The notes beneath the pieces are model-generated. The model was given only the letters and a program-made list of their open reading frames with translations, was not told the origin of the DNA and did no database searches. DNA of 64,000 nt from a virus (taxonomy: Duplodnaviria; Heunggongvirae; Uroviricota; Caudoviricetes): IMG/VR virus record IMGVR_UViG_3300025913_000024, positions 47,478-111,477 of that record; one strand, 5' to 3'. How positions within the stretch are numbered: position 1 is the stretch's first letter; every line of letters starts with the position of its first letter. The position numbers and the translations under genes are program-made. Positions 26,382 through 64,000 of the stretch are shown in pieces.

Positions 26382-26873
26382 ATGAAAAAATTTATCTTCC
26401 TCGATATTGACGGAGTTCTCGCAACCACTTGGCACAAACGCCTTGAGGATGGAGAGCTCTGTTTCAATGAGGCACCAGTCAGAAACTTTAACGATCTTTG
26501 TACGGCGGTACCTGATGCAAAGATCATCATCACCTCAACATGGCGTCTTGGTAGAACTGTTGATGAGTTGAGAGCTATCTTCAAGTTTAGAGGTTTTCTT
26601 TATCCTGAGAGGATCATCGATAAAACTCTCAGATTCTTCTACAACTACGACCTCAGCGATGGAACCTCTGCATCTAAAGGAGTTCCTAGAGGTGTTGAGA
26701 TCGCTCATTGGATGGATCATCATCTCATTGATGAGGATGAGATCTCCTACTTGATTCTTGATGACGACTCAGACATGATGCTCCGTCAAGGCAACCATTT
26801 CCTTCGAACCAATAGTTCTAGAGGTTTGACTTCGACAAACGTCAAAAGAGCGATTAAGATCCTAAATGGCTAG
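26382..26873 (+). CDS. HAD-superfamily phosphatase (polynucleotide-phosphatase or 5'-nucleotidase-like)
   Basis: Motif I FLDIDGVLA (DxDGV), motif II ITSTW, motif IV LILDDDSD. Confidence 0.55.
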   Translation: MKKFIFLDIDGVLATTWHKRLEDGELCFNEAPVRNFNDLCTAVPDAKIIITSTWRLGRTVDELRAIFKFRGFLYPERIIDKTLRFFYNYDLSDGTSASKGVPRGVEIAHWMDHHLIDEDEISYLILDDDSDMMLRQGNHFLRTNSSRGLTSTNVKRAIKILNG

Positions 26874-28223: not shown

Positions 28224-28652
28224 ATGAGATTCACTCAAGAATGGTTTAGAAACTCACCACAAGAAGAAGTCAAGCTATTGAATGGTGAGGAAGTTTGGGT
28301 CTGCGATTACAGATTCACCTCATTAGGCAACAAGCCTATTCGAGTCATTGTTCCGACTCTTTGTATCATCCACGTCAGTTTTTACGTGGACAAGTACTAT
28401 CCTAGAGGAAACCCGATTCCTGTTGTAGAACTCAAGATCAAGAAGAACGGAAAAGATCTTAAGGTAGAAGACAACACAACGGCCTACAACAACTGGCTGA
28501 AGATCTTTAACGATGAACAAGAGTGCAGAGCTTTCTTCAGAGAACAAATGACCGAAAACCTTGATGACCTAGACGAGTGGGAAAAAGGTCAGATAGAAAG
28601 AGCTGCAGAACTCAGAGCTACAATGCACAAGCTCCTAAAGGAACACGGATGA
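28224..28652 (+). CDS. hypothetical protein (142 aa)
   Basis: Preceded by a 140-nt AT-rich spacer. Confidence 0.5.
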   Translation: MRFTQEWFRNSPQEEVKLLNGEEVWVCDYRFTSLGNKPIRVIVPTLCIIHVSFYVDKYYPRGNPIPVVELKIKKNGKDLKVEDNTTAYNNWLKIFNDEQECRAFFREQMTENLDDLDEWEKGQIERAAELRATMHKLLKEHG

Positions 28653-29449
28653 GCAACAAATTTAAGAACGATTCACTTGGAACAAGGATGAAGGAGAACT
28701 ATGAGAACAGATCAAAGATCTTTCTCCCTCGTAGAACCTACATCATCCTTCGTGTGGATGGCAAAGCTTTTCACACATACACGCGTGGTCTATTAAGGCC
28801 TTTCGACCAGGGTTTGGTCGAAGACATGGACGCTACGGCAATCTACCTTTGCAAGAACATCATGGGTGCTCAGTTCGCCTATGTACAGTCTGACGAGATC
28901 TCTATTCTTCTCACAGACTTTGACACCAACGAGACCCAATCTTGGTTTGACAACAATGTCCAGAAGCTTGCCTCAGTCTCTGCTTCTATGGCAACCTCAG
29001 CTTTCAACAAGGCCAGGATTTCAAGGTTCATGGCTACTACGACAGCAGTTCCTCTCGAGGATGCTGTGGACAAATTGACTTGGGCAGAGTTTGACTCTCG
29101 TGCCTTCCAGATCCCTCAGAAAGTTGAAGTAGAGAACTACTTCATCTGGCGTCAGCAGGATGCTACAAGAAACGCCATCTCCAGTGCTGCTCAATCTGTC
29201 TACTCCCACAAAGAACTTGAGGGAAAGTCTGGAGATGAGAAGCAAGAGATGATGTTTCAGAGAGGCATCAACTTCAACGACTATGATCCTAAGTACAAAA
29301 GAGGTCGTTTGATCGTTACAGAAACTTTTCCAAGTATCTCAGTTACATCAGGTGACATGGCAATTAGAACAAAATGGGTCTCCACGGCCGCTCCTATCTT
29401 CACTCAAGATAGAGATGATCTCTCTGATAGAATTCCAGAAAGTAGGTAA
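28649..29449 (+). CDS. Thg1-like protein (tRNA-His guanylyltransferase family 3'-5' nucleotidyltransferase)
   Basis: Start ATGA overlaps the upstream stop. Motifs ILRVDGKAFHTYTRG, YVQSDEISILL and QKLASVSASMATSAF match the Thg1 signatures VVRLDGRNFHRF, YGQSDEYSFVF and SKFMTHVASQFAS. Confidence 0.75.
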   Translation: MSNKFKNDSLGTRMKENYENRSKIFLPRRTYIILRVDGKAFHTYTRGLLRPFDQGLVEDMDATAIYLCKNIMGAQFAYVQSDEISILLTDFDTNETQSWFDNNVQKLASVSASMATSAFNKARISRFMATTTAVPLEDAVDKLTWAEFDSRAFQIPQKVEVENYFIWRQQDATRNAISSAAQSVYSHKELEGKSGDEKQEMMFQRGINFNDYDPKYKRGRLIVTETFPSISVTSGDMAIRTKWVSTAAPIFTQDRDDLSDRIPESR

Positions 29450-30667: not shown

Positions 30668-31126
30668 ATGTCCAAGACTCCTGCTGAACAACTTTCCATT
30701 GCGATCTCGATCGCTTCGAAGGGCCATGAAGGGGTCTTGGATAAGGGCGGCTCGCCCTACATCCTTCATCCTCTTCACGTGATGAACGCTGTTGCCCATC
30801 TTGGCTATCTGTGCATGGCTGCTGGTGTTCTTCATGACACTATTGAAGACACTGACACCACTGCTCAGAATCTGCGTGACGCTGGTCTCGAAGAGAACGT
30901 GGTCATGACTGTCTTGGCCGTCTCTCGCCCTAATGGAGTTCTCTATGATGACTTCATCAAGGCGATTGGAGCTACCCCCGGTATCGTAGGAACTTGGGCT
31001 CGGGCCATCAAGTTGGCTGACATCGAACACAACTCTACCGTCACTCGCCTCAAGGGTGTGGCTAAGAAGGACTTCGATCGTCTTCAGAAGTATGTCTATG
31101 CATACCAGTATCTGAAGGAAGTGTAA
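30668..31126 (+). CDS. small alarmone hydrolase (RelA/SpoT-type HD domain, Mesh1-like (p)ppGpp hydrolase)
   Basis: HD-domain motifs YILHPLHV and LHDTIEDT match the SpoT/Mesh1 hydrolase signature (HxxxHD...ED). 152 aa is the stand-alone SAH size. Confidence 0.7.
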   Translation: MSKTPAEQLSIAISIASKGHEGVLDKGGSPYILHPLHVMNAVAHLGYLCMAAGVLHDTIEDTDTTAQNLRDAGLEENVVMTVLAVSRPNGVLYDDFIKAIGATPGIVGTWARAIKLADIEHNSTVTRLKGVAKKDFDRLQKYVYAYQYLKEV

Positions 31127-36638: not shown

Positions 36639-36901
36639 GTGGTCCAGCTCCAAAGCATGGACAACCTACCCACCATGAAGCTGTTCATCACGTTTATCTT
36701 ACTGTAGAACAGATGGAGAAGATGACAACTCAACGTCTTCTAGCTTACTTCAAGAAACACTTGATGCATGATCCATTCTATCCTTCCAGTGAAAAAGAAA
36801 AACATGACGAGTGGGAGATGGTTAGAGCTAAAGCTCAAAGTATACTATCAAGTAGAGAACATGTTCCTTCTAAGAGGGAACTCCAAAAGAGAAAGAAATG
36901 A
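36635..36901 (+). CDS. hypothetical protein (88 aa)
   Basis: ATGA overlap. Confidence 0.45.
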   Translation: MSGPAPKHGQPTHHEAVHHVYLTVEQMEKMTTQRLLAYFKKHLMHDPFYPSSEKEKHDEWEMVRAKAQSILSSREHVPSKRELQKRKK

Positions 36902-37320
36902 CACGATACGTTTTAGGTTTTCTTTTTGATGACGAAAAGAACACGGTCGTCTTGATCAAGAAAAACAAGCCTGTTTGGCAAAAAGGTCTCTTGAACGGTG
37001 TTGGTGGGAAGATCGAAGAAGGTGAACTTCCTATAGTCGCTATGGTAAGAGAGTTTGAAGAGGAAACGTCTGTGAAAACAGACAACCTTGATTGGAAGCA
37101 CTTTGCTGGTGTTGAAGGCGAAGGTTACTCCATCGCTTGTTTCTACACCATCAGTTCTGACTACATGAAAAACGTCAAGACCATGGAAGAAGAAGTGATC
37201 GAGATTCGTAGGATTCGAGATCTTCAAGATCTTCCTATAGTCTCCAATCTTCTTTGGTTGGTTCACCTTGCAAAAGATGAAAACAATGGTAACCATCCTA
37301 CTGTTCAAGTAAAGTACTAA
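36898..37320 (+). CDS. Nudix hydrolase
   Basis: Nudix box GGKIEEGELPIVAMVREFEEETSV fits Gx5Ex7REUxEExGU with G replaced by S in the last position. Confidence 0.65.
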   Translation: MTRYVLGFLFDDEKNTVVLIKKNKPVWQKGLLNGVGGKIEEGELPIVAMVREFEEETSVKTDNLDWKHFAGVEGEGYSIACFYTISSDYMKNVKTMEEEVIEIRRIRDLQDLPIVSNLLWLVHLAKDENNGNHPTVQVKY

Positions 37321-37354
37321 ATGACTGTTATTCTTCTGTGTGTACTAATTGTAC

Positions 37355-37816
37355 ATGAGAAGAACCTATAGAATAGAAAAGTCTTTAGATATTGAGGAGT
37401 TCATTAGAATAACTAATGAATCGTTAACCATGAAACAAGCTGCTGTGAAACTTGGTCTTCATTTTAATAGTTTCAGAAGAATAGCAGTAAAGTATGGAGT
37501 TTATCGACCTAATCGTGGAGGCAAAGGAACCCATAAGCATAAAGAAAATGGGACTACACCTCTTACTGAAATTTTGGAAGGAAACCATCCATCATATCAA
37601 ACGTTTAGATTAAAACTTAGATTAATTTCAGAAGGAATTTTTATTCCAGAATGTTCTGAATGCAAAAATACTCAATGGAATAAAAAAGAAATTCCTTTAG
37701 AGTTAGATCACATAGATGGAAATTCTTCTAACCATCTTTTAGACAACTTACGATTGTTATGTCCAAATTGTCATGCACAAACTGAGACGTATAGAGGAAA
37801 AAACAAAAAGTTTTGA
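37355..37816 (+). CDS. free-standing HNH homing endonuclease
   Basis: C-terminal HIDGNSSNHLLDNLRLLCPNCHAQTE (HNH with CxxC). N-terminal HTH-like segment. The gene is markedly AT-rich relative to its flanks. The ORF track starts at TTG 37349; the first ATG is at 37355. Confidence 0.7.
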   Translation: MRRTYRIEKSLDIEEFIRITNESLTMKQAAVKLGLHFNSFRRIAVKYGVYRPNRGGKGTHKHKENGTTPLTEILEGNHPSYQTFRLKLRLISEGIFIPECSECKNTQWNKKEIPLELDHIDGNSSNHLLDNLRLLCPNCHAQTETYRGKNKKF

Positions 37817-37836: not shown

Positions 37837-37947
37837 GCGGGAGTGGAGAAATGGTGAGACTCAGCGGACTTATGAATGCATTCTAACTAGTGCATTGAAT
37901 AAATCCGCTGCTTAAGAGGCGTGCCGGTTCGAGTCCGGTCTCCCGCA
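37837..37947 (+). tRNA. tRNA-like gene with a long variable arm and a roughly 28-nt hairpin insertion in the anticodon loop (possible intron-containing or degenerate tRNA)
   Basis: Acceptor GCGGGAG pairs with CTCCCGC followed by discriminator A. Canonical T-arm GCCGG-TTCGAGT-CCGGT. D-arm GAG/CTC with a GG-containing loop. Anticodon stem GCGGA/TCCGC is separated by 35 nt instead of 7; the first 7 nt CTTATGA would give anticodon UAU. A 14-nt variable region is present. Confidence 0.4.
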
Positions 37948-38679: not shown

Positions 38680-38706
38680 ACAACTTATAGTTCATGGAGA
38701 CTACAG

Positions 38707-39917
38707 ATGGCCCGTATTGAAAAGCTGATCATGGTGACCGGTGAAGAGAATCACAACAAGGTCTATGAGCTGATCGACAACGAGAACGGTACTTGTACCG
38801 CCAAGTGGGGTCGGGTTGGCGCTGCTCTTCAGGAGTGCAACTACCCCATCAGCGAGTTTGAAAAGAAGCTCAAGGAAAAGGTCAAGAAGGGCTATCGCGT
38901 GATCACCGATCTTCTGTCTGTCGAGAAAAGTGATGGTAAGACCACCACTACGGACGACGAAGAGGTAAAGATCCAGAACATGTCCCGTGAGGCCATGGAG
39001 TTGATCAACTTCCTCCAGAGTTGTGCTAAGGCATCGTCAAGCAGAACTACACCGTCAAAGTTGCCGACGTTACTCAGAAGCAGATCGACGCTGCTCAGGC
39101 CATCCTGGACGGACTGGTTGCTCTGTCCAACCAGAACTGGTCTCGTGAAGAGGCCAACAAGATCCTTTTGGATCTTTACAACACCATCCCCCGGAAGATG
39201 AGCAACACCAAGAACTTCCTCATCCAGATCGACAACATCACGAAGAAGCGCCTTCAGGAGTTGATCTCCAGTGAAGCCGATCTTCTTGACGTTATGCGCG
39301 GTCAGGTTCAGACCACGAACGTTGCTCCCAAGTCTTCCACTGGCGAAGTCAAGTTGGATATTGAGATTCGTCTCGCTACTCCCGATGAGATCGATGAGAT
39401 CTCCAAGAAGACTGACTTTGATGTTCGTAGTGCTGCAAGGATCTATCGGGTGGAGAACACCAAGACCAAGAATCGCTACGAAAGTATCAACAAGCAGAAT
39501 GAACAGCTTCTCTACCACGGTTCTCGCAGCCAGAACTGGTGGTCGATCATCAACGGCGGTTTGAAGATTCGTCCGACCAACGCCGTTCACACTGGCTCGA
39601 TGTTCTCCGATGGTATCTACGCTGCTGACAAAGCTCAGAAGTCTCTCGGTTACACCGACGGTGGTTATTGGACTGGTAGCAGTGGTTCCTCGAAGAGGTT
39701 CCTCGGCATCTACAGTTTCAACCTCGGTCGTCAGTGGGATCTGTTCGCTGGTGGTCAGCGTCATGCCAGCTGGATGATGCAGCTCAACCTGAAGAAGATC
39801 AACGACAAGGGTTTTGACTCTCTGTTCGCTAAGGGTGGAGCAGATCTTCGCAACAATGAGATGATCGTGTTCGAAGAGGCTCGCTGCACCATCAAGTATC
39901 TGATCGAGATGCGTTAA
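38707..39917 (+). pseudogene. PARP-like ADP-ribosyltransferase (WGR domain, helical region, H-Y-E catalytic domain), split by a -1 frame change near 39027-39032
   Basis: N-terminal WGR motif TAKWGRVGA. C-terminal LLYHGSRSQNWWSIINGGLKIRP ... GSMFSDGIYAADKAQKS ... NEMIVFEEARCTIKYLIE parallels PARP1 [23 protein letters not shown] ... GYMFGKGIYFADMVSKS ... NEYIVYDIAQVNLKYLLK. Frame 1 turns into Ser/Thr/Arg-rich nonsense after ...FLQSCAK. Frame 0 is open from 39030 and reads as sensible protein. A single continuous 403-codon gene needs a 1-nt change. Confidence 0.75.
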
Positions 39918-44427: not shown

Positions 44428-45291
44428 ATGAGAAGTTTCAAGTTCATTTCGTTGCTGGCAGTTGTTCTGTTGGCACTGGCAAGCTGTTCTCAGCTCCAGG
44501 TTAAGGCAGGTCACGTTGGTATCATCGTTGACCAGTACGGATCTGGTTCTGGTGTTGAACAGCAGGTCGTAGGTGTAGGTTATCACAGTCTTGGCTGGAA
44601 TCAGCAAGGATATGACTACCCGATCTATAAGATCCAGTACCAGTTCAAGAACAATGGCAAAGAAGGAGTGGATGAATCGATCCCCTTCCAATCTAAGGAA
44701 GGTGTGAAGTGCTCGGCTGATGTGGCCATTCAGGTCCAGGTCGAGAACGATAACAAGTCGATCATCAACTTGTTCACCAGTTACCGAGAGGACATCGAGA
44801 CCGTCGTCCATACCCAGGTTCATAATCGACTTCGTGACTACATGGGTCTCTACGCATCCAAGATGACCGTAGATGATCTGTATGGAAACAAGCGCTTTGA
44901 CATGTTGATTGATGTTACCAAGGCCCTAGCGGACGAGTTCTCCAAGCAAGGTCTGATCATTGACAACCTTAGCTTCTTGGGTGTTGTTGAGTTCCCTGAG
45001 ACTATCAAGTCTGCCATTGATGCAAAGATGGCTGCTACTCAAAAGGCTCAGCAGAGAGACAACGAGATCGCGACTGCTCAGGCAAGTGCTGCTATCCAGG
45101 TCACCCAGGCTAAAGGTGAGGCCGATTCTAACCGAATCTTGGCTGCTTCGATCAGTCCTGAGATCCTGAAGCTCAAGGAGCTCCAGAACCAAGAGAAGTT
45201 CATCGAGGCTCTTTCCACAGGAAAGGCTACGATGCCTACCACGTATGTGGCAGGTGGTTCTAACTCCCAGACCTTCATTCCTTTGAAGTAA
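44428..45291 (+). CDS. SPFH/band-7 (prohibitin/HflK-like) domain lipoprotein
   Basis: Lipobox LALASC. SPFH-like core followed by an Ala/Gln-rich coiled segment (EIATAQASAAIQVTQAKGEADSNRILAAS). Confidence 0.6.
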   Translation: MRSFKFISLLAVVLLALASCSQLQVKAGHVGIIVDQYGSGSGVEQQVVGVGYHSLGWNQQGYDYPIYKIQYQFKNNGKEGVDESIPFQSKEGVKCSADVAIQVQVENDNKSIINLFTSYREDIETVVHTQVHNRLRDYMGLYASKMTVDDLYGNKRFDMLIDVTKALADEFSKQGLIIDNLSFLGVVEFPETIKSAIDAKMAATQKAQQRDNEIATAQASAAIQVTQAKGEADSNRILAASISPEILKLKELQNQEKFIEALSTGKATMPTTYVAGGSNSQTFIPLK

Positions 45292-58998: not shown

Positions 58999-59430
58999 AT
59001 GGTTACAAGAAAAATTTGGCGTTTTGAAAACGAAAAAGGTGAAGGTCCTTATAACGGACACCCTAGTCCAAAATTTCTCTTTAAGTCTACTCATGACGGA
59101 GAGTCTAAGAAACATCCTCATCCCAAGTATGACTTTAAGAACTCTAAGATCATTAGATTCTTAAACAACATGAACACTAAAGATCACTTTAGATGTGGAT
59201 TTTCTACAAAGAAACAGGCATTTGAGTGGTTTACTGAACGAGAAAGAAAGATCTTGAAAAATAATGGCTACAATTTAGTCCGTAAAAATGCAGATAGAAT
59301 CTTTAAAGGAAACAAACAAGTTATCTATATTCGTGAAGGTCATTTAGAAGAACTTGTTAAAGTTTTTCGTTTTGATCATTCTGTTCCAAAAACATTAACA
59401 TCAATATATTCAATCAGGAGCTCAACATGA
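58999..59430 (+). CDS. hypothetical basic protein (143 aa)
   Basis: ATG after the upstream stop; the track ORF starts earlier at 58858 inside the previous gene. Confidence 0.45.
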   Translation: MVTRKIWRFENEKGEGPYNGHPSPKFLFKSTHDGESKKHPHPKYDFKNSKIIRFLNNMNTKDHFRCGFSTKKQAFEWFTERERKILKNNGYNLVRKNADRIFKGNKQVIYIREGHLEELVKVFRFDHSVPKTLTSIYSIRSST

Positions 59431-59978
59431 TGCTACAGACCATTGAAGGAAACCTAATCACTCTCGCCCTTGAAGGCAAGTTCGACATGATCGCTCATGG
59501 TTGTAACTGCTTCCATACCATGGGAGGAGGGATCGCCAAGTCTATTTCTGAGACTTTTCCTGAAGCTCTTCAAGCCGACAGGGTCTTTGGAGAAAGAGGA
59601 AACGTTTGGAAGCTTGGTCAGGCTTCCAAGGCTACGATCTTTCGTGGAGACACTCAGTTTGTTGTGGTGAACCTCTATACTCAGTTTGAGCCTGGAGCCA
59701 ACTTTGAATACTTGGCCTTGATCAACTCTTTAGAGCATCTCAAGAAATACTTGGATATTCATCTCTACGATCGAGTGTCCGATAAACCTTACCGTCTTGG
59801 TTTTCCCAAGATCGGAGCTGGTATTGGTGGTGGAGATTGGGACCAGATCTACCAGATCATTGACCAGTCTCTTGACGAGAAGTATCGTGAGGAACAGGGA
59901 GTCGAAATCACGGTTGTCGAGTTCATTCCTCCTAATCCTCTTCAGGAGATCGTTGTTCGTTCTCTTCAGAAGAAGTAA
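59427..59978 (+). CDS. Macro domain protein (ADP-ribose binding / ADP-ribosyl hydrolase family)
   Basis: N-terminal FDMIAHGCNCFHTMGGGIAKSI parallels the macro motif NAAN..L.GGGV..AI. C-terminal YRLGFPKIGAGIGGGDW parallels the macro motif SIAFPAISTGIYGYP. RBS CAGGAG 6 nt upstream. Confidence 0.7.
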   Translation: MMLQTIEGNLITLALEGKFDMIAHGCNCFHTMGGGIAKSISETFPEALQADRVFGERGNVWKLGQASKATIFRGDTQFVVVNLYTQFEPGANFEYLALINSLEHLKKYLDIHLYDRVSDKPYRLGFPKIGAGIGGGDWDQIYQIIDQSLDEKYREEQGVEITVVEFIPPNPLQEIVVRSLQKK

Positions 59979-62398: not shown

Positions 62399-62986
62399 AT
62401 GGGAAAGACTGCAGTTTTTACATTTGCAAGAATGAATCCTCCAACTTTAGGTCATGAACTATTGCTCTCAGAACTTGTCATTCAAGCCTTAGAAAAGAAA
62501 GCTGATCCATTTCTTTTCCTTTCCCACACAGAAGACTCTAAGAAAAACCCTATTCCTTACGGGAACAAAGTTAAATTTGTCAAAGAACTTTTCAAAGATA
62601 AGTTCCCTGAACTCCATATCTACTCAGGAGAGAGCTGCAAGAACCCTAGAGAAGCTCTCTCTTTCCTTTACAATCTTGACGATTACTCTGAGGTGATTGG
62701 AGTCTTTGGTAGTGATCGAGTGGATGACATGTACGATCTTATGACCAGAGGAAACGGAAAAGAAGGTCTTTCATCTGGTTTCTATCTCTTCAACAAACTC
62801 TCTGTCACATCAGCCGGAGAACGAGACCCAGAACAAGATGGAGTTGAAGGTGTTTCTGCCACTAAACTCCGTGAGTACGCTCTAGAAAATGACTTTGAGT
62901 CCTTCAAAAAAGGTCTTCCAGAGGCTGACGAAACACTAATTAATAACATCTTTCTAACGACCCAACGAGGACTTGAACGTGCCTGA
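62399..62986 (+). CDS. NMN adenylyltransferase-like nucleotidyltransferase (archaeal NadM-type HxGH fold)
   Basis: FARMNPPTLGHELLL parallels GRMQPFHRGHLQVI ((H/T)xGH motif). FLFLSHTEDSKKNPIPYGNKVKFVKELF parallels [38 protein letters not shown] resembles the C-terminal ATP motif. Confidence 0.55.
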   Translation: MGKTAVFTFARMNPPTLGHELLLSELVIQALEKKADPFLFLSHTEDSKKNPIPYGNKVKFVKELFKDKFPELHIYSGESCKNPREALSFLYNLDDYSEVIGVFGSDRVDDMYDLMTRGNGKEGLSSGFYLFNKLSVTSAGERDPEQDGVEGVSATKLREYALENDFESFKKGLPEADETLINNIFLTTQRGLERA

Positions 62987-64000
62987 AAAAACTATCCCTA
63001 ACTCTGGAGCGGTCTCTTCTGATCGAATCCTTCAAAAGAACGTTTTTCCAACCATTGAGGTCTTTGTTGATAAGATCTTGAACTTGGTTCCTCACCAGAA
63101 GTATGGCGTGATCGGATCTACTGGAAAGAAACAAGACAACGGAGATATCGACCTAGGCCTTGAAACCTCTTTGACCTTAGATCAAGTGAGTGCTGTCCTA
63201 AACGACCTTGACGTTGATCATGTGGTTCAAAAAGGACTTAATGAGATCAATTGTCGATTTCCTCAGTATGAGAACGGAGCTCACAAGTTAGATCTTTGGG
63301 TTCAGGTTGACTTGATGTTAGGAAATTTGGATTGGTTGGAGTTCGTGTTCTACGTGGACAAGGACACCAAGTACAAGCCGATGGCTAGAACTGGTCTTCT
63401 CTTCGGTCTACTCAAAGTAGCTGCTATGCCTATCGCTGGCCAAAACACACCTCAAGGTCCATCTAATGAAGTTTGGTCTTTTGCTCCTACTCGTGGTATG
63501 TTCACCAAGGTTGGAACCAAAAGAACTAACAGAAAAGGTGAAGAAGTCATCGATTGGACCAACTCGTCTTCTTATACCCCTGACCCAAACAAGTTTTGTG
63601 AGATCGCCTTTGAACAAGCTAGGCGCGCTGTAAAACCCTCTGAACTAGAAACTTCCTTTGAAGGTTGTTGGAAGGTTATGACAGACGTTTTCTCTAACAA
63701 CCCTACTCTCTTAGGTCAACTCGCAGAGTATGTCATGAACTTCTGTAAGGACAAGGGAGTCTCACCGGTTCCTGAGCTTGAACAATGGACCAAAGCCTTG
63801 AAGGTTCAAGAGTCTATTGAACAACTTCTTGAATACGTTGAGTACATCAAGGGTCACAAAAACTCCTCTGGAGAATCTGCTCCTTGGGTCATCAAACAAC
63901 ATAACACTGGAAAGATCCTCTCAAGCCACTCCTCTGAGGCCAAGGCTAAGGCTCACCTCGGTCAGATGGAGATGCACAAACATCTGGAAGAAAAGTATGA
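62979..64000 (+). CDS. Pol-beta-superfamily nucleotidyltransferase (partial, runs off the window end)
   Basis: GTG start with RBS GAGGA 7 nt upstream. YGVIGSTGKKQDNGDIDLGLE matches the hG[GS]x(9-13)DhD nucleotidyltransferase motif. The ORF is open to nt 64000 (not in the ORF track because it lacks an in-window stop). Confidence 0.5.
   Translation, partial: MPEKTIPNSGAVSSDRILQKNVFPTIEVFVDKILNLVPHQKYGVIGSTGKKQDNGDIDLGLETSLTLDQVSAVLNDLDVDHVVQKGLNEINCRFPQYENGAHKLDLWVQVDLMLGNLDWLEFVFYVDKDTKYKPMARTGLLFGLLKVAAMPIAGQNTPQGPSNEVWSFAPTRGMFTKVGTKRTNRKGEEVIDWTNSSSYTPDPNKFCEIAFEQARRAVKPSELETSFEGCWKVMTDVFSNNPTLLGQLAEYVMNFCKDKGVSPVPELEQWTKALKVQESIEQLLEYVEYIKGHKNSSGESAPWVIKQHNTGKILSSHSSEAKAKAHLGQMEMHKHLEEKY

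Follow-up and report, generated by a model that had tools for sequence, protein, structure and literature searches.

The locus described here raises the question of whether a jumbo phage encodes a working Thg1-like protein (TLP) and, if so, which RNA such an enzyme would act on during infection. The gene lies on a 305,853-bp metagenomic contig (ENA ERZ27252312 k141_4393686; a jumbo phage of ~306 kb), from which we analysed a stretch of 64 kb, referred to as the window. Among the phage genes in the window are rIIA and rIIB, ribonucleotide reductase, a Gp23-like capsid protein and a tail-collar protein. An original prediction, made from the window's sequence, had proposed that the TLP gene, a HAD phosphatase gene, an aberrant tRNA-like gene and a Pol-beta-type nucleotidyltransferase gene share a theme of tRNA 5'-end repair.

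The Thg1-like gene and its predicted active site

The TLP gene is located on the + strand at 28649–29449 and runs from an ATG at 28649 to a stop codon at 29447–29449. It encodes a protein of 266 aa, predicted to be a template-dependent 3'-5' nucleotidyltransferase. The longest form of the ORF begins at a GTG at 28577. The ATG is the better call for the start, because it aligns with residue 2 of the Bacillus thuringiensis TLP (BtTLP), is preceded by an AGGA 6 nt upstream and overlaps the stop codon of the upstream ORF (ATGA). This upstream ORF (28224–28652, + strand; 142 aa) had no Pfam or PHROG match and was not conserved beside the TLP gene in 80 related loci. Promoter and terminator scans around the TLP gene returned the same counts as shuffled sequence.

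The TLP ORF was matched by Pfam PF04446 (Thg1) with an E-value of 1.8e-27 and 96.3 bits (cut-off 29.2), covering profile positions 3–130 of 130, while PF14413 (Thg1C) passed marginally at 28.6 bits (cut-off 26.3). PHROG 4717, 'tRNA-His guanylyltransferase', matched at 2.8e-80 and PDB 4kgk (BtTLP) matched residues 8–258 at 5e-60. At the sequence level, these family matches are confirmed to be far beyond chance, and the PF04446 search, with PHROG 4717 and 4kgk in agreement, upholds the original prediction that the ORF is Thg1-like. The three motifs on which that prediction drew are all present, RVDGKAFH at residues 35–42, QSDEIS at 80–85 and ASVSASMATSAF at 108–119; the last had been placed at the C-terminus and is in fact found in the middle of the protein.

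Alignment to 4kgk located the predicted catalytic carboxylates at D37, D82 and E83, equivalent to D30, D75 and E76 of BtTLP and to D29, D76 and E77 of hTHG1. These D and E positions are invariant in 80–81 of 81 phage homologues. The catalytic or NTP-binding residues of BtTLP are E12, R28, D30, S74, D75, E76, K99, R131 and R147 (PMC3701042). All nine are identical in the phage protein, where the residues other than the carboxylates are E19, R35, S81, K106, R151 and R168, and these positions show little or no variation among the 81 phage TLPs. The phage protein thus resembles BtTLP (PDB 4KGK/4KGM) over residues 8–258, in the three carboxylates, in the NTP-binding Arg, Lys and Glu residues and in its length class. 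It differs in being phage-encoded, in an insertion of ~12 residues at positions 128–139, and in three substitutions (Lys for R16, Arg for K43 and Ser for M158), each of which is either the prevailing residue or a common one in the phage clade (81 homologues).

BtTLP K43 (K44 in yeast) positions the activating ATP. Its counterpart here is Arg50, and among the 81 phage homologues the position is Arg in 50 and Lys in 23. As read from the alignment, this is a conservative change and a trait of the clade, with no sign of decay. In BtTLP, the K43A substitution lowered adenylylation ~10-fold and did not lower guanylylation (PMC3701042). Since most phage TLPs have Arg at this position, their activation chemistry may differ. 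That Arg replaces this Lys in most phage copies is a by-product of the present analysis.

Eukaryotic Thg1 sequences (Candida, human and others) matched the TLP ORF far more weakly than BtTLP did (6.7e-14 to 1e-7 versus 5e-60). Candida Thg1 has HINNLYN, a motif of the tRNA-His-specific eukaryotic enzymes, which aligns to TRNAISS in the phage protein. On this sequence evidence, we regard it as confirmed that the gene is intact and encodes a bacterial-type, predicted catalytically competent Thg1-like 3'-5' RNA polymerase.

TLP homologues are widespread among phages: they were found in 164 GenBank phage records, where most are annotated as tRNA-His guanylyltransferase, and in at least 80 IMG/VR contigs. 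The phage members of PHROG 4717, which include genes of Bacillus phage vB_BmeM-Goe8, Pseudomonas phage 201phi2-1 and the Lak megaphages, belong to the same family and come mostly from large or jumbo phages. Our TLP differs from these in its divergence, sharing no more than 48% identity with GenBank phage copies and no more than 62% with those from IMG/VR, and a megablast search with 6 kb around the gene found no nucleotide-level relative among GenBank phages. A role of phage Thg1 in RNA repair was already proposed in 2010 and 2021, and a counter-defence role has likewise been proposed in print (PMC2904730, PMC7824862). Phage TLP genes and their predicted function in tRNA repair are therefore known, and in this respect the gene is an ordinary find, one more divergent member of its family. 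In the literature that we searched, we found no phage TLP that had been studied biochemically.

Genes that accompany phage TLPs

A gene for a standalone HAD phosphatase of the 'Swiss-army-knife' (SAK) RNA-repair type is located 1.8 kb upstream of the TLP gene (26382–26873, + strand). PF18143 (HAD_SAK_2, 'HAD domain in Swiss Army Knife RNA repair proteins') matched it at 1.4e-25 and 90.7 bits (cut-off 27.5). The HAD motifs can be read in the translation as FLDIDGVL, containing the DIDGV nucleophile of motif I (DxD), and LILDDDSD (DDD), and the product is a probable RNA-end phosphatase.

To place this gene in context, the neighbourhoods of TLP genes in 80 related IMG/VR loci were compared with 120 control phage loci. 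The SAK-type HAD was the most frequent neighbour. Homologues of the HAD at 26382–26873 occur within 10 kb of the TLP gene in 14 of the 80 loci versus 1 of the 120 controls, HAD_SAK_2 was counted in 17 of the 80, and in L031, L033 and L040 the two genes are directly adjacent. Both the profile match and this recurrence agree with the earlier suggestion that the HAD gene fits an RNA-repair theme. A gene for a Macro-domain protein (59427–59978, + strand; Pfam Macro 6.3e-6, PHROG 335 2.8e-53) lies 30 kb from the TLP gene in our phage; in related phages it is a recurrent neighbour, with homologues near the TLP gene in 10 of 80 loci and in none of the 120 controls, and Macro was counted in 11 of the 80. 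The enrichment of HAD and Macro genes near TLP genes (p ~1e-5 to 1e-4) was measured against controls that are a biased sample of phage tRNA-array loci. Other neighbours were YqeY (12 loci), PolyA_pol/CCA-type nucleotidyltransferases (11) and RNA ligases (7). The genes around phage TLPs do not form an operon of constant composition, and any given partner is absent from most of the 80 loci. As a by-product, the survey puts numbers on the tendency of phage TLP genes to be accompanied by genes for SAK-type HAD phosphatases and Macro proteins.

A small alarmone hydrolase of the RelA/SpoT HD type is encoded 1.2 kb downstream of the TLP gene (30668–31126, + strand). It was matched by PDB 7smg, '(p)ppApp hydrolase', at 2.3e-28 and weakly by PF13328 (HD_4; precomputed), and homologues occur in 456 phage records. 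It was not found near TLP genes in the 80 related loci, and was rejected as a conserved partner; its link to the TLP gene is only a loose one.

RNA ligase and polynucleotide kinase had been named as partners worth searching for. A T4 Rnl1-type RNA ligase is encoded ~5.3 kb beyond the window end, ~40 kb from the TLP gene. Polynucleotide kinase, RtcB and CCA-adding enzyme were not found in the window or in ~8–10 kb beyond each of its ends. The supposed Pol-beta-type nucleotidyltransferase (62979–64000, + strand) is the N-terminal 340 aa of an orphan ORF of 712 aa that runs past the window end. Its motifs, GS-x9-DxD (GS...DIDL) and a later VDL, were seen by eye only. Searches against Pfam, PHROG, NCBIfam and PDB sequences gave no match, PF01743 (PolyA_pol) and PF10127 (RlaP) included, a database search returned 13 weak matches with one partial homologue (P0001), and the AlphaFold2 model was unusable (mean pLDDT 40.9). 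With a motif and no family or PDB match in the four sequence libraries, the Pol-beta assignment is unproven.

An interrupted tRNA-Leu gene and phage tRNA-like RNAs

The aberrant tRNA-like gene is a tRNA-Leu(UAA)-like gene at 37837–37947 (+ strand) that encodes no CCA. In E-value mode RF00005 scored it at 42 bits, above the gathering score of 29, whereas the whole-window gathering run missed it; likewise, default ARAGORN missed the gene and ARAGORN -i called it. A hairpin-forming insertion of 28 nt separates anticodon positions 35 and 36, such that the anticodon loop has 35 nt (CTTA + 28 nt + AAA) rather than the 7 nt, on a 5-bp stem, of a standard tRNA. The CTTA...AAA flanks align to the CTTAAAA of phage tRNA-Leu(UAA) genes, and the fold has z = −4.1. 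Neither blastn nor an exact 22-mer scan found relatives of the gene. The original prediction was correct in that the gene is real; the proposed tie to the TLP gene is unsupported, as the two are 8.4 kb apart and the 7-bp acceptor stem is perfect, leaving no 5'-end defect for the TLP to fix. A second odd 'tRNA-???', called by ARAGORN beyond the window end (L202, 19210–19283), gained no support from Rfam.

Separately, we observed an extensive family of tRNA-like RNAs, located in phage tRNA arrays and not linked to TLP genes, in which the acceptor, D and T arms do not vary and the middle is hypervariable. The variable middles were considered as guides and rejected, their matches to other phage sequences being orthologous elements only. 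A described family pairs a tRNA-like gene with an adjoining Band-7 gene and an RNA ligase (10.1101/312249). The gene at 37837–37947 was not assigned to it, given that the Band_7 gene (44428–45291) is 6.5 kb away and the ligase ~31 kb away; a Band-7 gene occurred in 1 of 120 loci carrying the tRNA-like RNA.

Predicted role of the phage TLP

The reading that we favour, and hold to be reasonably probable from sequence comparison, is that the TLP is a bacterial-type enzyme that would rebuild tRNA 5' ends and keep the tRNA pool usable as part of a dispersed repair set. By homology with BtTLP, it would bind a tRNA with a short 5' strand in the acceptor stem and either use ATP or GTP to activate the 5'-monophosphate or take a 5'-triphosphate directly. 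It would then add nucleotides in the 3'-to-5' direction, templated by Watson–Crick pairing with the 3' side of the acceptor stem, until the stem is restored; such additions would include G-1 opposite C73 in tRNA-His. The tRNA pool kept usable in infection could be that of the host, that encoded by the phage, or both. The TLP would be one element of an RNA-end and nucleotide-repair set scattered over the genome, with the SAK-type HAD, the alarmone hydrolase, NUDIX and Macro proteins and the Rnl1-type ligase. We infer both the tRNA substrate and any counter-defence purpose. The repair theme as originally conceived gains from the HAD and the Rnl1 ligase, and loses the tie of the tRNA-like gene, the Pol-beta match and a kinase.

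The annotation of the GenBank homologues suggests a narrower function, dedicated tRNA-His maturation, in which the TLP would add or restore G-1 on phage or host tRNA-His for charging by HisRS. Within 10 kb of TLP genes, the related loci contain 13 tRNA-His genes, one of which (in L009) starts 15 nt past the TLP stop. Most of the 13 carry C73, and a bacterial TLP can place G-1 opposite this base in a Watson–Crick pair (PMC3701042). However, these are 13 of 197 neighbouring tRNAs, which is no enrichment, and a G at −1 is already part of at least 8 of the 13 genes, so that addition would be needless unless RNase P miscuts. A G at −1 encoded in the tRNA-His gene is usual in bacteria. In addition, TRNAISS stands in place of the HINNLYN of Candida Thg1, and BtTLP prefers truncated tRNAs over full-length tRNA-His (PMC3701042). 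Specificity for tRNA-His found no support in the survey, and we consider this function unlikely. Somewhat more credible, though still doubtful, is a housekeeping role in the quality control of the phage's own dense tRNA genes, for example after RNase P miscleavage, with no conflict over host defence. It would account for TLP genes embedded in large tRNA arrays (L002, L005, L006 and L009) and for the 28 of 80 loci with tRNA genes within 10 kb, but the other 52 have none within that distance, and ARAGORN found no canonical tRNA gene in the 64-kb window. Moreover, mismatches in pairs 1–3 of the acceptor stem occur in 8 of the 197 tRNAs near TLP genes, which is no excess and gives no sign of programmed 5' editing, an explanation that was rejected.

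The TLP might instead act on a non-tRNA or tRNA-like RNA, such as the interrupted tRNA-Leu-like gene product or the tRNA-like RNAs of its relatives. In L022, L025/L027/L029 and L026, the TLP gene is directly preceded by a tRNA-like gene whose anticodon arm has been replaced, and the window has its own aberrant gene. In the reverse search, however, a TLP gene was present in only 2 of the 120 loci carrying the tRNA-like RNA family, and a pairing of the two was rejected; the distance and intact acceptor stem of 37837–37947 also argue against it. We judge such a substrate very improbable. Least likely of all is a more specific version, in which the Rnl1 ligase and SAK-HAD phosphatase of the phage, perhaps together with the TLP, remove or otherwise handle the 28-nt insertion of the phage tRNA-Leu(UAA), the TLP acting on phage tRNA-like RNAs and not on damaged host tRNA. 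If true, it would represent a protein-dependent pathway of tRNA processing or repair in a bacterial virus.

Two known systems can be set beside our preferred reading, the rebuilding of tRNA 5' ends. Phage T4 uses Pnkp and Rnl1 against the anticodon nuclease PrrC, likewise a phage-encoded set that restores tRNA, and an Rnl1-type ligase is found here too; the HAD phosphatase at 26382–26873 shares its superfamily with the phosphatase domain of Pnkp. However, T4 mends breaks in the anticodon loop by end-healing and ligation, whereas the TLP would rebuild missing 5' nucleotides, no kinase domain was found in the window or in ~8–10 kb beyond each of its ends, and no cognate host nuclease is known. 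The mitochondrial TLPs of Dictyostelium and Acanthamoeba, which act in tRNA 5' editing, use a template to repair the first positions of the acceptor stem in the 3'-5' direction (PMC3701042, PMC4820378), but their substrates encode 5' mismatches and the phage tRNAs near TLP genes do not.

To our knowledge, no host defence truncates tRNA 5' ends, and the damage to be repaired is therefore hypothetical. If phage TLPs do rebuild tRNA 5' ends in infection, this would imply an undescribed kind of tRNA damage or host defence.

The phage Thg1-like protein

The gene at 28649–29449 (+) encodes a Thg1-like protein (TLP) of 266 amino acids. Its ORF is longest when read from GTG 28577, but the start assumed in the original prediction, ATG 28649, is better supported because it aligns to residue 2 of the Bacillus thuringiensis TLP (BtTLP; PDB 4KGK), has an AGGA 6 nt to its 5′ side and forms an ATGA overlap with the end of the ORF before it. 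The Thg1-like identity proposed from sequence was confirmed with Pfam PF04446 (96.3 bits, cut-off 29.2, full profile covered). Thg1C scored 28.6 bits (cut-off 26.3), and PHROG 4717, 'tRNA-His guanylyltransferase', matched at 2.8e-80. The predicted motifs RVDGKAFH, QSDEIS and ASVSASMATSAF were all found; the last, described as C-terminal, occupies residues 108–119 and is therefore mid-protein. BtTLP was the top solved-structure match (5e-60, residues 8–258), with weaker matches to eukaryotic and archaeal Thg1/TLP structures (6.7e-14 to 1e-7), and similarity this strong to a crystallized protein answers the question of the fold.

Residue roles known for BtTLP (PMC3701042) were transferred to the window TLP through the 4KGK alignment. 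The three conserved carboxylates of BtTLP (D30, D75, E76) correspond to D37, D82 and E83, all present as predicted, and the residues for NTP binding and nucleotidyl transfer (BtTLP E12, R28, S74, K99, R131, R147) to E19, R35, S81, K106, R151 and R168. Both sets are invariant or nearly so among 81 aligned phage TLPs, comprising the window copy and homologues from 80 IMG/VR loci. At three further positions, K43, which positions the activating ATP, is R50; R16, which contacts the NTP γ-phosphate, is K23; and M158 of the activation site is S179. K23 is a minority state among the 81, while R50 and S179 are the majority states (arginine in 50 and serine in 48). The K43-to-R and M158-to-S replacements may reflect a different activating-nucleotide preference in the phage clade. 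The HINNLYN motif of Candida Thg1 aligns to TRNAISS in the window TLP. The protein is therefore a TLP of the bacterial type and of the repair class, and its active site appears to be functional.

A TLP in a phage is not new, and the window copy is a divergent member of an already annotated family. Homologues were detected by tblastn in 164 GenBank phage records, from Bacillus, Prevotella Lak, Caulobacter, Mycobacterium, Erwinia, Vibrio and other phages, most of them annotated as tRNA-His guanylyltransferase. The 80 IMG/VR loci encode homologues of 41–62% identity, many in contigs of 100–345 kb. Thg1 in phage 201phi2-1, and bacterial operons joining Thg1 to polynucleotide kinase, Macro and RNA ligase, were pointed out previously (Anantharaman et al., 2010; PMC2904730), and Thg1 and a standalone 'Swiss-army-knife' HAD phosphatase have been described as jumbo-phage RNA-repair components (Iyer et al., 2021; PMC7824862). 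A literature search turned up no experimental work on any phage TLP.

Genomic setting and candidate partners

The source virus is a jumbo phage. The window sits in a 305,853-bp metagenomic contig (ENA ERZ27252312 k141_4393686, exact-protein match) and encodes rIIA, rIIB, both ribonucleotide reductase subunits, a Gp23-like capsid protein and a tail-collar protein. Many ORFs are without a family match, and no nucleotide-level relative was found among 50,697 GenBank phage records.

The HAD phosphatase at 26382–26873, predicted to belong to an RNA-repair theme, matches PF18143 HAD_SAK_2 at 1.4e-25 with its DxD and DDD motifs both intact, and its place in that theme is supported. When ORFs in the 80 TLP-related loci were clustered by BLAST, the HAD family was the commonest TLP neighbour, occurring in 17 loci that represent 10 of 65 TLP groups at 90% identity, and directly adjoining the TLP gene in three of them (L031, L033, L040). 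With the window HAD as tblastn query, homologues were found in 14 of the 80 TLP loci and in one of 120 control loci (Fisher p=1.3e-5), an enrichment that is indicative only, because the control phage loci had been gathered for an unrelated reason and are a non-random sample. Macro domains recurred in 10 of 80 loci against none of the 120. Further recurrent neighbours were YqeY, PolyA_pol/CCA-type nucleotidyltransferases, DNA ligases and RNA ligases; two more clusters are putative NAD-salvage enzymes.

Further genes came from precomputed Pfam matches for the contig and from our own searches. Of the partners that had been suggested, an RNA ligase of the T4 Rnl1 type lies ~5.3 kb past the window end (PF09511; PDB 2c5u, 3.5e-14), and no polynucleotide kinase was found in the window and ~8–10 kb past each end; the same region yielded no RtcB or PolyA_pol-family enzyme. 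The supposed Pol-beta-type nucleotidyltransferase at 62979–64000 comprises the first 340 amino acids of a 712-amino-acid ORF and carries GS-x9-DIDL and a later VDL motif. It had no match in Pfam, PHROGs, NCBIfam or PDB sequences and cannot be named a CCA-adding or repair nucleotidyltransferase. Searching 5.8 billion proteins gave a single partial homologue besides matches to a ~50-amino-acid module, and the AlphaFold2 model was unusable (pLDDT 41). That module (residues 283–332, …GHKNS-GESAPWVI--H-TGKILSSH…) is ~65% identical to segments of otherwise unrelated proteins (P0002–P0012), one with a SprT-like domain (PF10263), and looks like a promiscuous small domain.

ADP-ribose- and NAD-related genes are dispersed across the window: a NUDIX protein (36898–37320), a PARP-like ADP-ribosyltransferase (38706–39917, +, where naive ORF calling chooses the opposite strand), a Macro protein with a faint DarG resemblance (59427–59978) and a HIGH-type cytidylyltransferase-like protein (62399–62986). 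A small alarmone hydrolase is encoded at 30668–31126 (+; PDB 7smg, '(p)ppApp hydrolase', 2.3e-28), with homologues in 456 GenBank phage records, many labelled just hypothetical. For Band-7 genes of bacteria, a partnership with RtcB and a tRNA-like RNA has been predicted (10.1101/312249); for the Band_7/SPFH protein at 44428–45291 (+; PHROG 200, 'lipoprotein') no such link can be claimed, because 6.5 kb separate it from the closest tRNA-like gene. On this gene content, the phage's RNA-end and nucleotide toolkit is dispersed, with no compact repair operon.

tRNA-like genes in the window and in phage tRNA arrays

The aberrant tRNA-like gene at 37837–37947 (+) went undetected by default ARAGORN and in the whole-window Rfam run, and with laxer filters matched Rfam tRNA at 42 bits (gathering score 29). 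Alignment to phage tRNA-Leu(UAA) genes identified it as a tRNA-Leu(UAA) of type II, with 28 nt inserted in the anticodon loop (CTTA|AAA) between anticodon positions 35 and 36, so that the anticodon stem continues as a long hairpin. The insertion may be removed, or the gene may be a pseudo-tRNA or specify a non-decoding RNA. An insertion of 28 nt is far below group I intron size. A free-standing HNH endonuclease gene (37349–37816, +) ends 21 nt to the 5′ side. The 7-bp acceptor stem is free of mismatches and is followed by discriminator A, with no encoded CCA. This tRNA-like gene had been counted among the repair components; it has no 5′-end defect, its distance to the TLP gene is 8.4 kb, nothing ties it to the TLP, and its inclusion is not supported.

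In several other loci (L022, L025/L027/L029, L026), a tRNA-like gene with its anticodon arm replaced lies directly 5′ of the TLP gene. Scanning IMG/VR for an invariant 25-mer from its 3′ half matched at least 120 contigs. The RNA was rejected as a TLP partner because only two of 120 carrier loci, among the matches listed, contain a TLP gene.

This RNA family is remarkable in itself. It comprises at least 118 distinct elements of 70–182 nt (L022 9791–9912; L025 8257–8351 and 5054–5154; L026 9808–9913; and members in L081–L200), with up to five copies per locus (e.g. L089) within phage tRNA arrays. Across 118 elements, the 5′ part, AGTCAGGTGGCGGAATGGTAGACGC (acceptor and D arm), and the 3′ part, ACAGGTTCGAATCCTGTCCTGACTA (T arm and acceptor), are near-invariant, and a hypervariable middle stands where the anticodon and variable arms would be. 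In a test for a canonical anticodon arm, all 118 failed, whereas 154 of 191 ordinary tRNAs in these loci passed. The only Rfam match is to tRNA, and a literature search found no published description.

Long tRNA-His(GTG) calls (85–89 nt, usually 75–77) were also observed in arrays near TLP genes, adjoining ordinary tRNA-His copies (L051 4058–4143, L054 3740–3828, L055 4011–4095).

Function of the phage TLP

A dedicated role in tRNA-His maturation, as the common annotation would imply, is not favoured: tRNA-His accounts for 13 of 197 tRNAs neighbouring TLP genes, and at least 8 of these 13 already encode G-1, with C73. Programmed 5′ editing is not supported, as just 8 of the 197 tRNAs have a mismatch at acceptor pairs 1–3. 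In some lineages the TLP may plausibly serve the phage tRNA arrays, its gene being embedded in such arrays in L002, L005, L006 and L009; however, such a role is not general, since no tRNA lies nearby in 52 of the 80 loci or in the window.

A counter-defence role for phage TLPs has been proposed previously and is unproven. Of the tRNA 5′-end repair set in the original prediction, part is supported: the evidence bears out the HAD phosphatase and an RNA ligase as partners, but neither the tRNA-like gene nor the nucleotidyltransferase. For the window TLP itself, homology supports the mechanism established for BtTLP, in which a 5′-monophosphate would be activated, or a 5′-triphosphate used directly, and templated 3′–5′ addition would then proceed up to a full acceptor stem.
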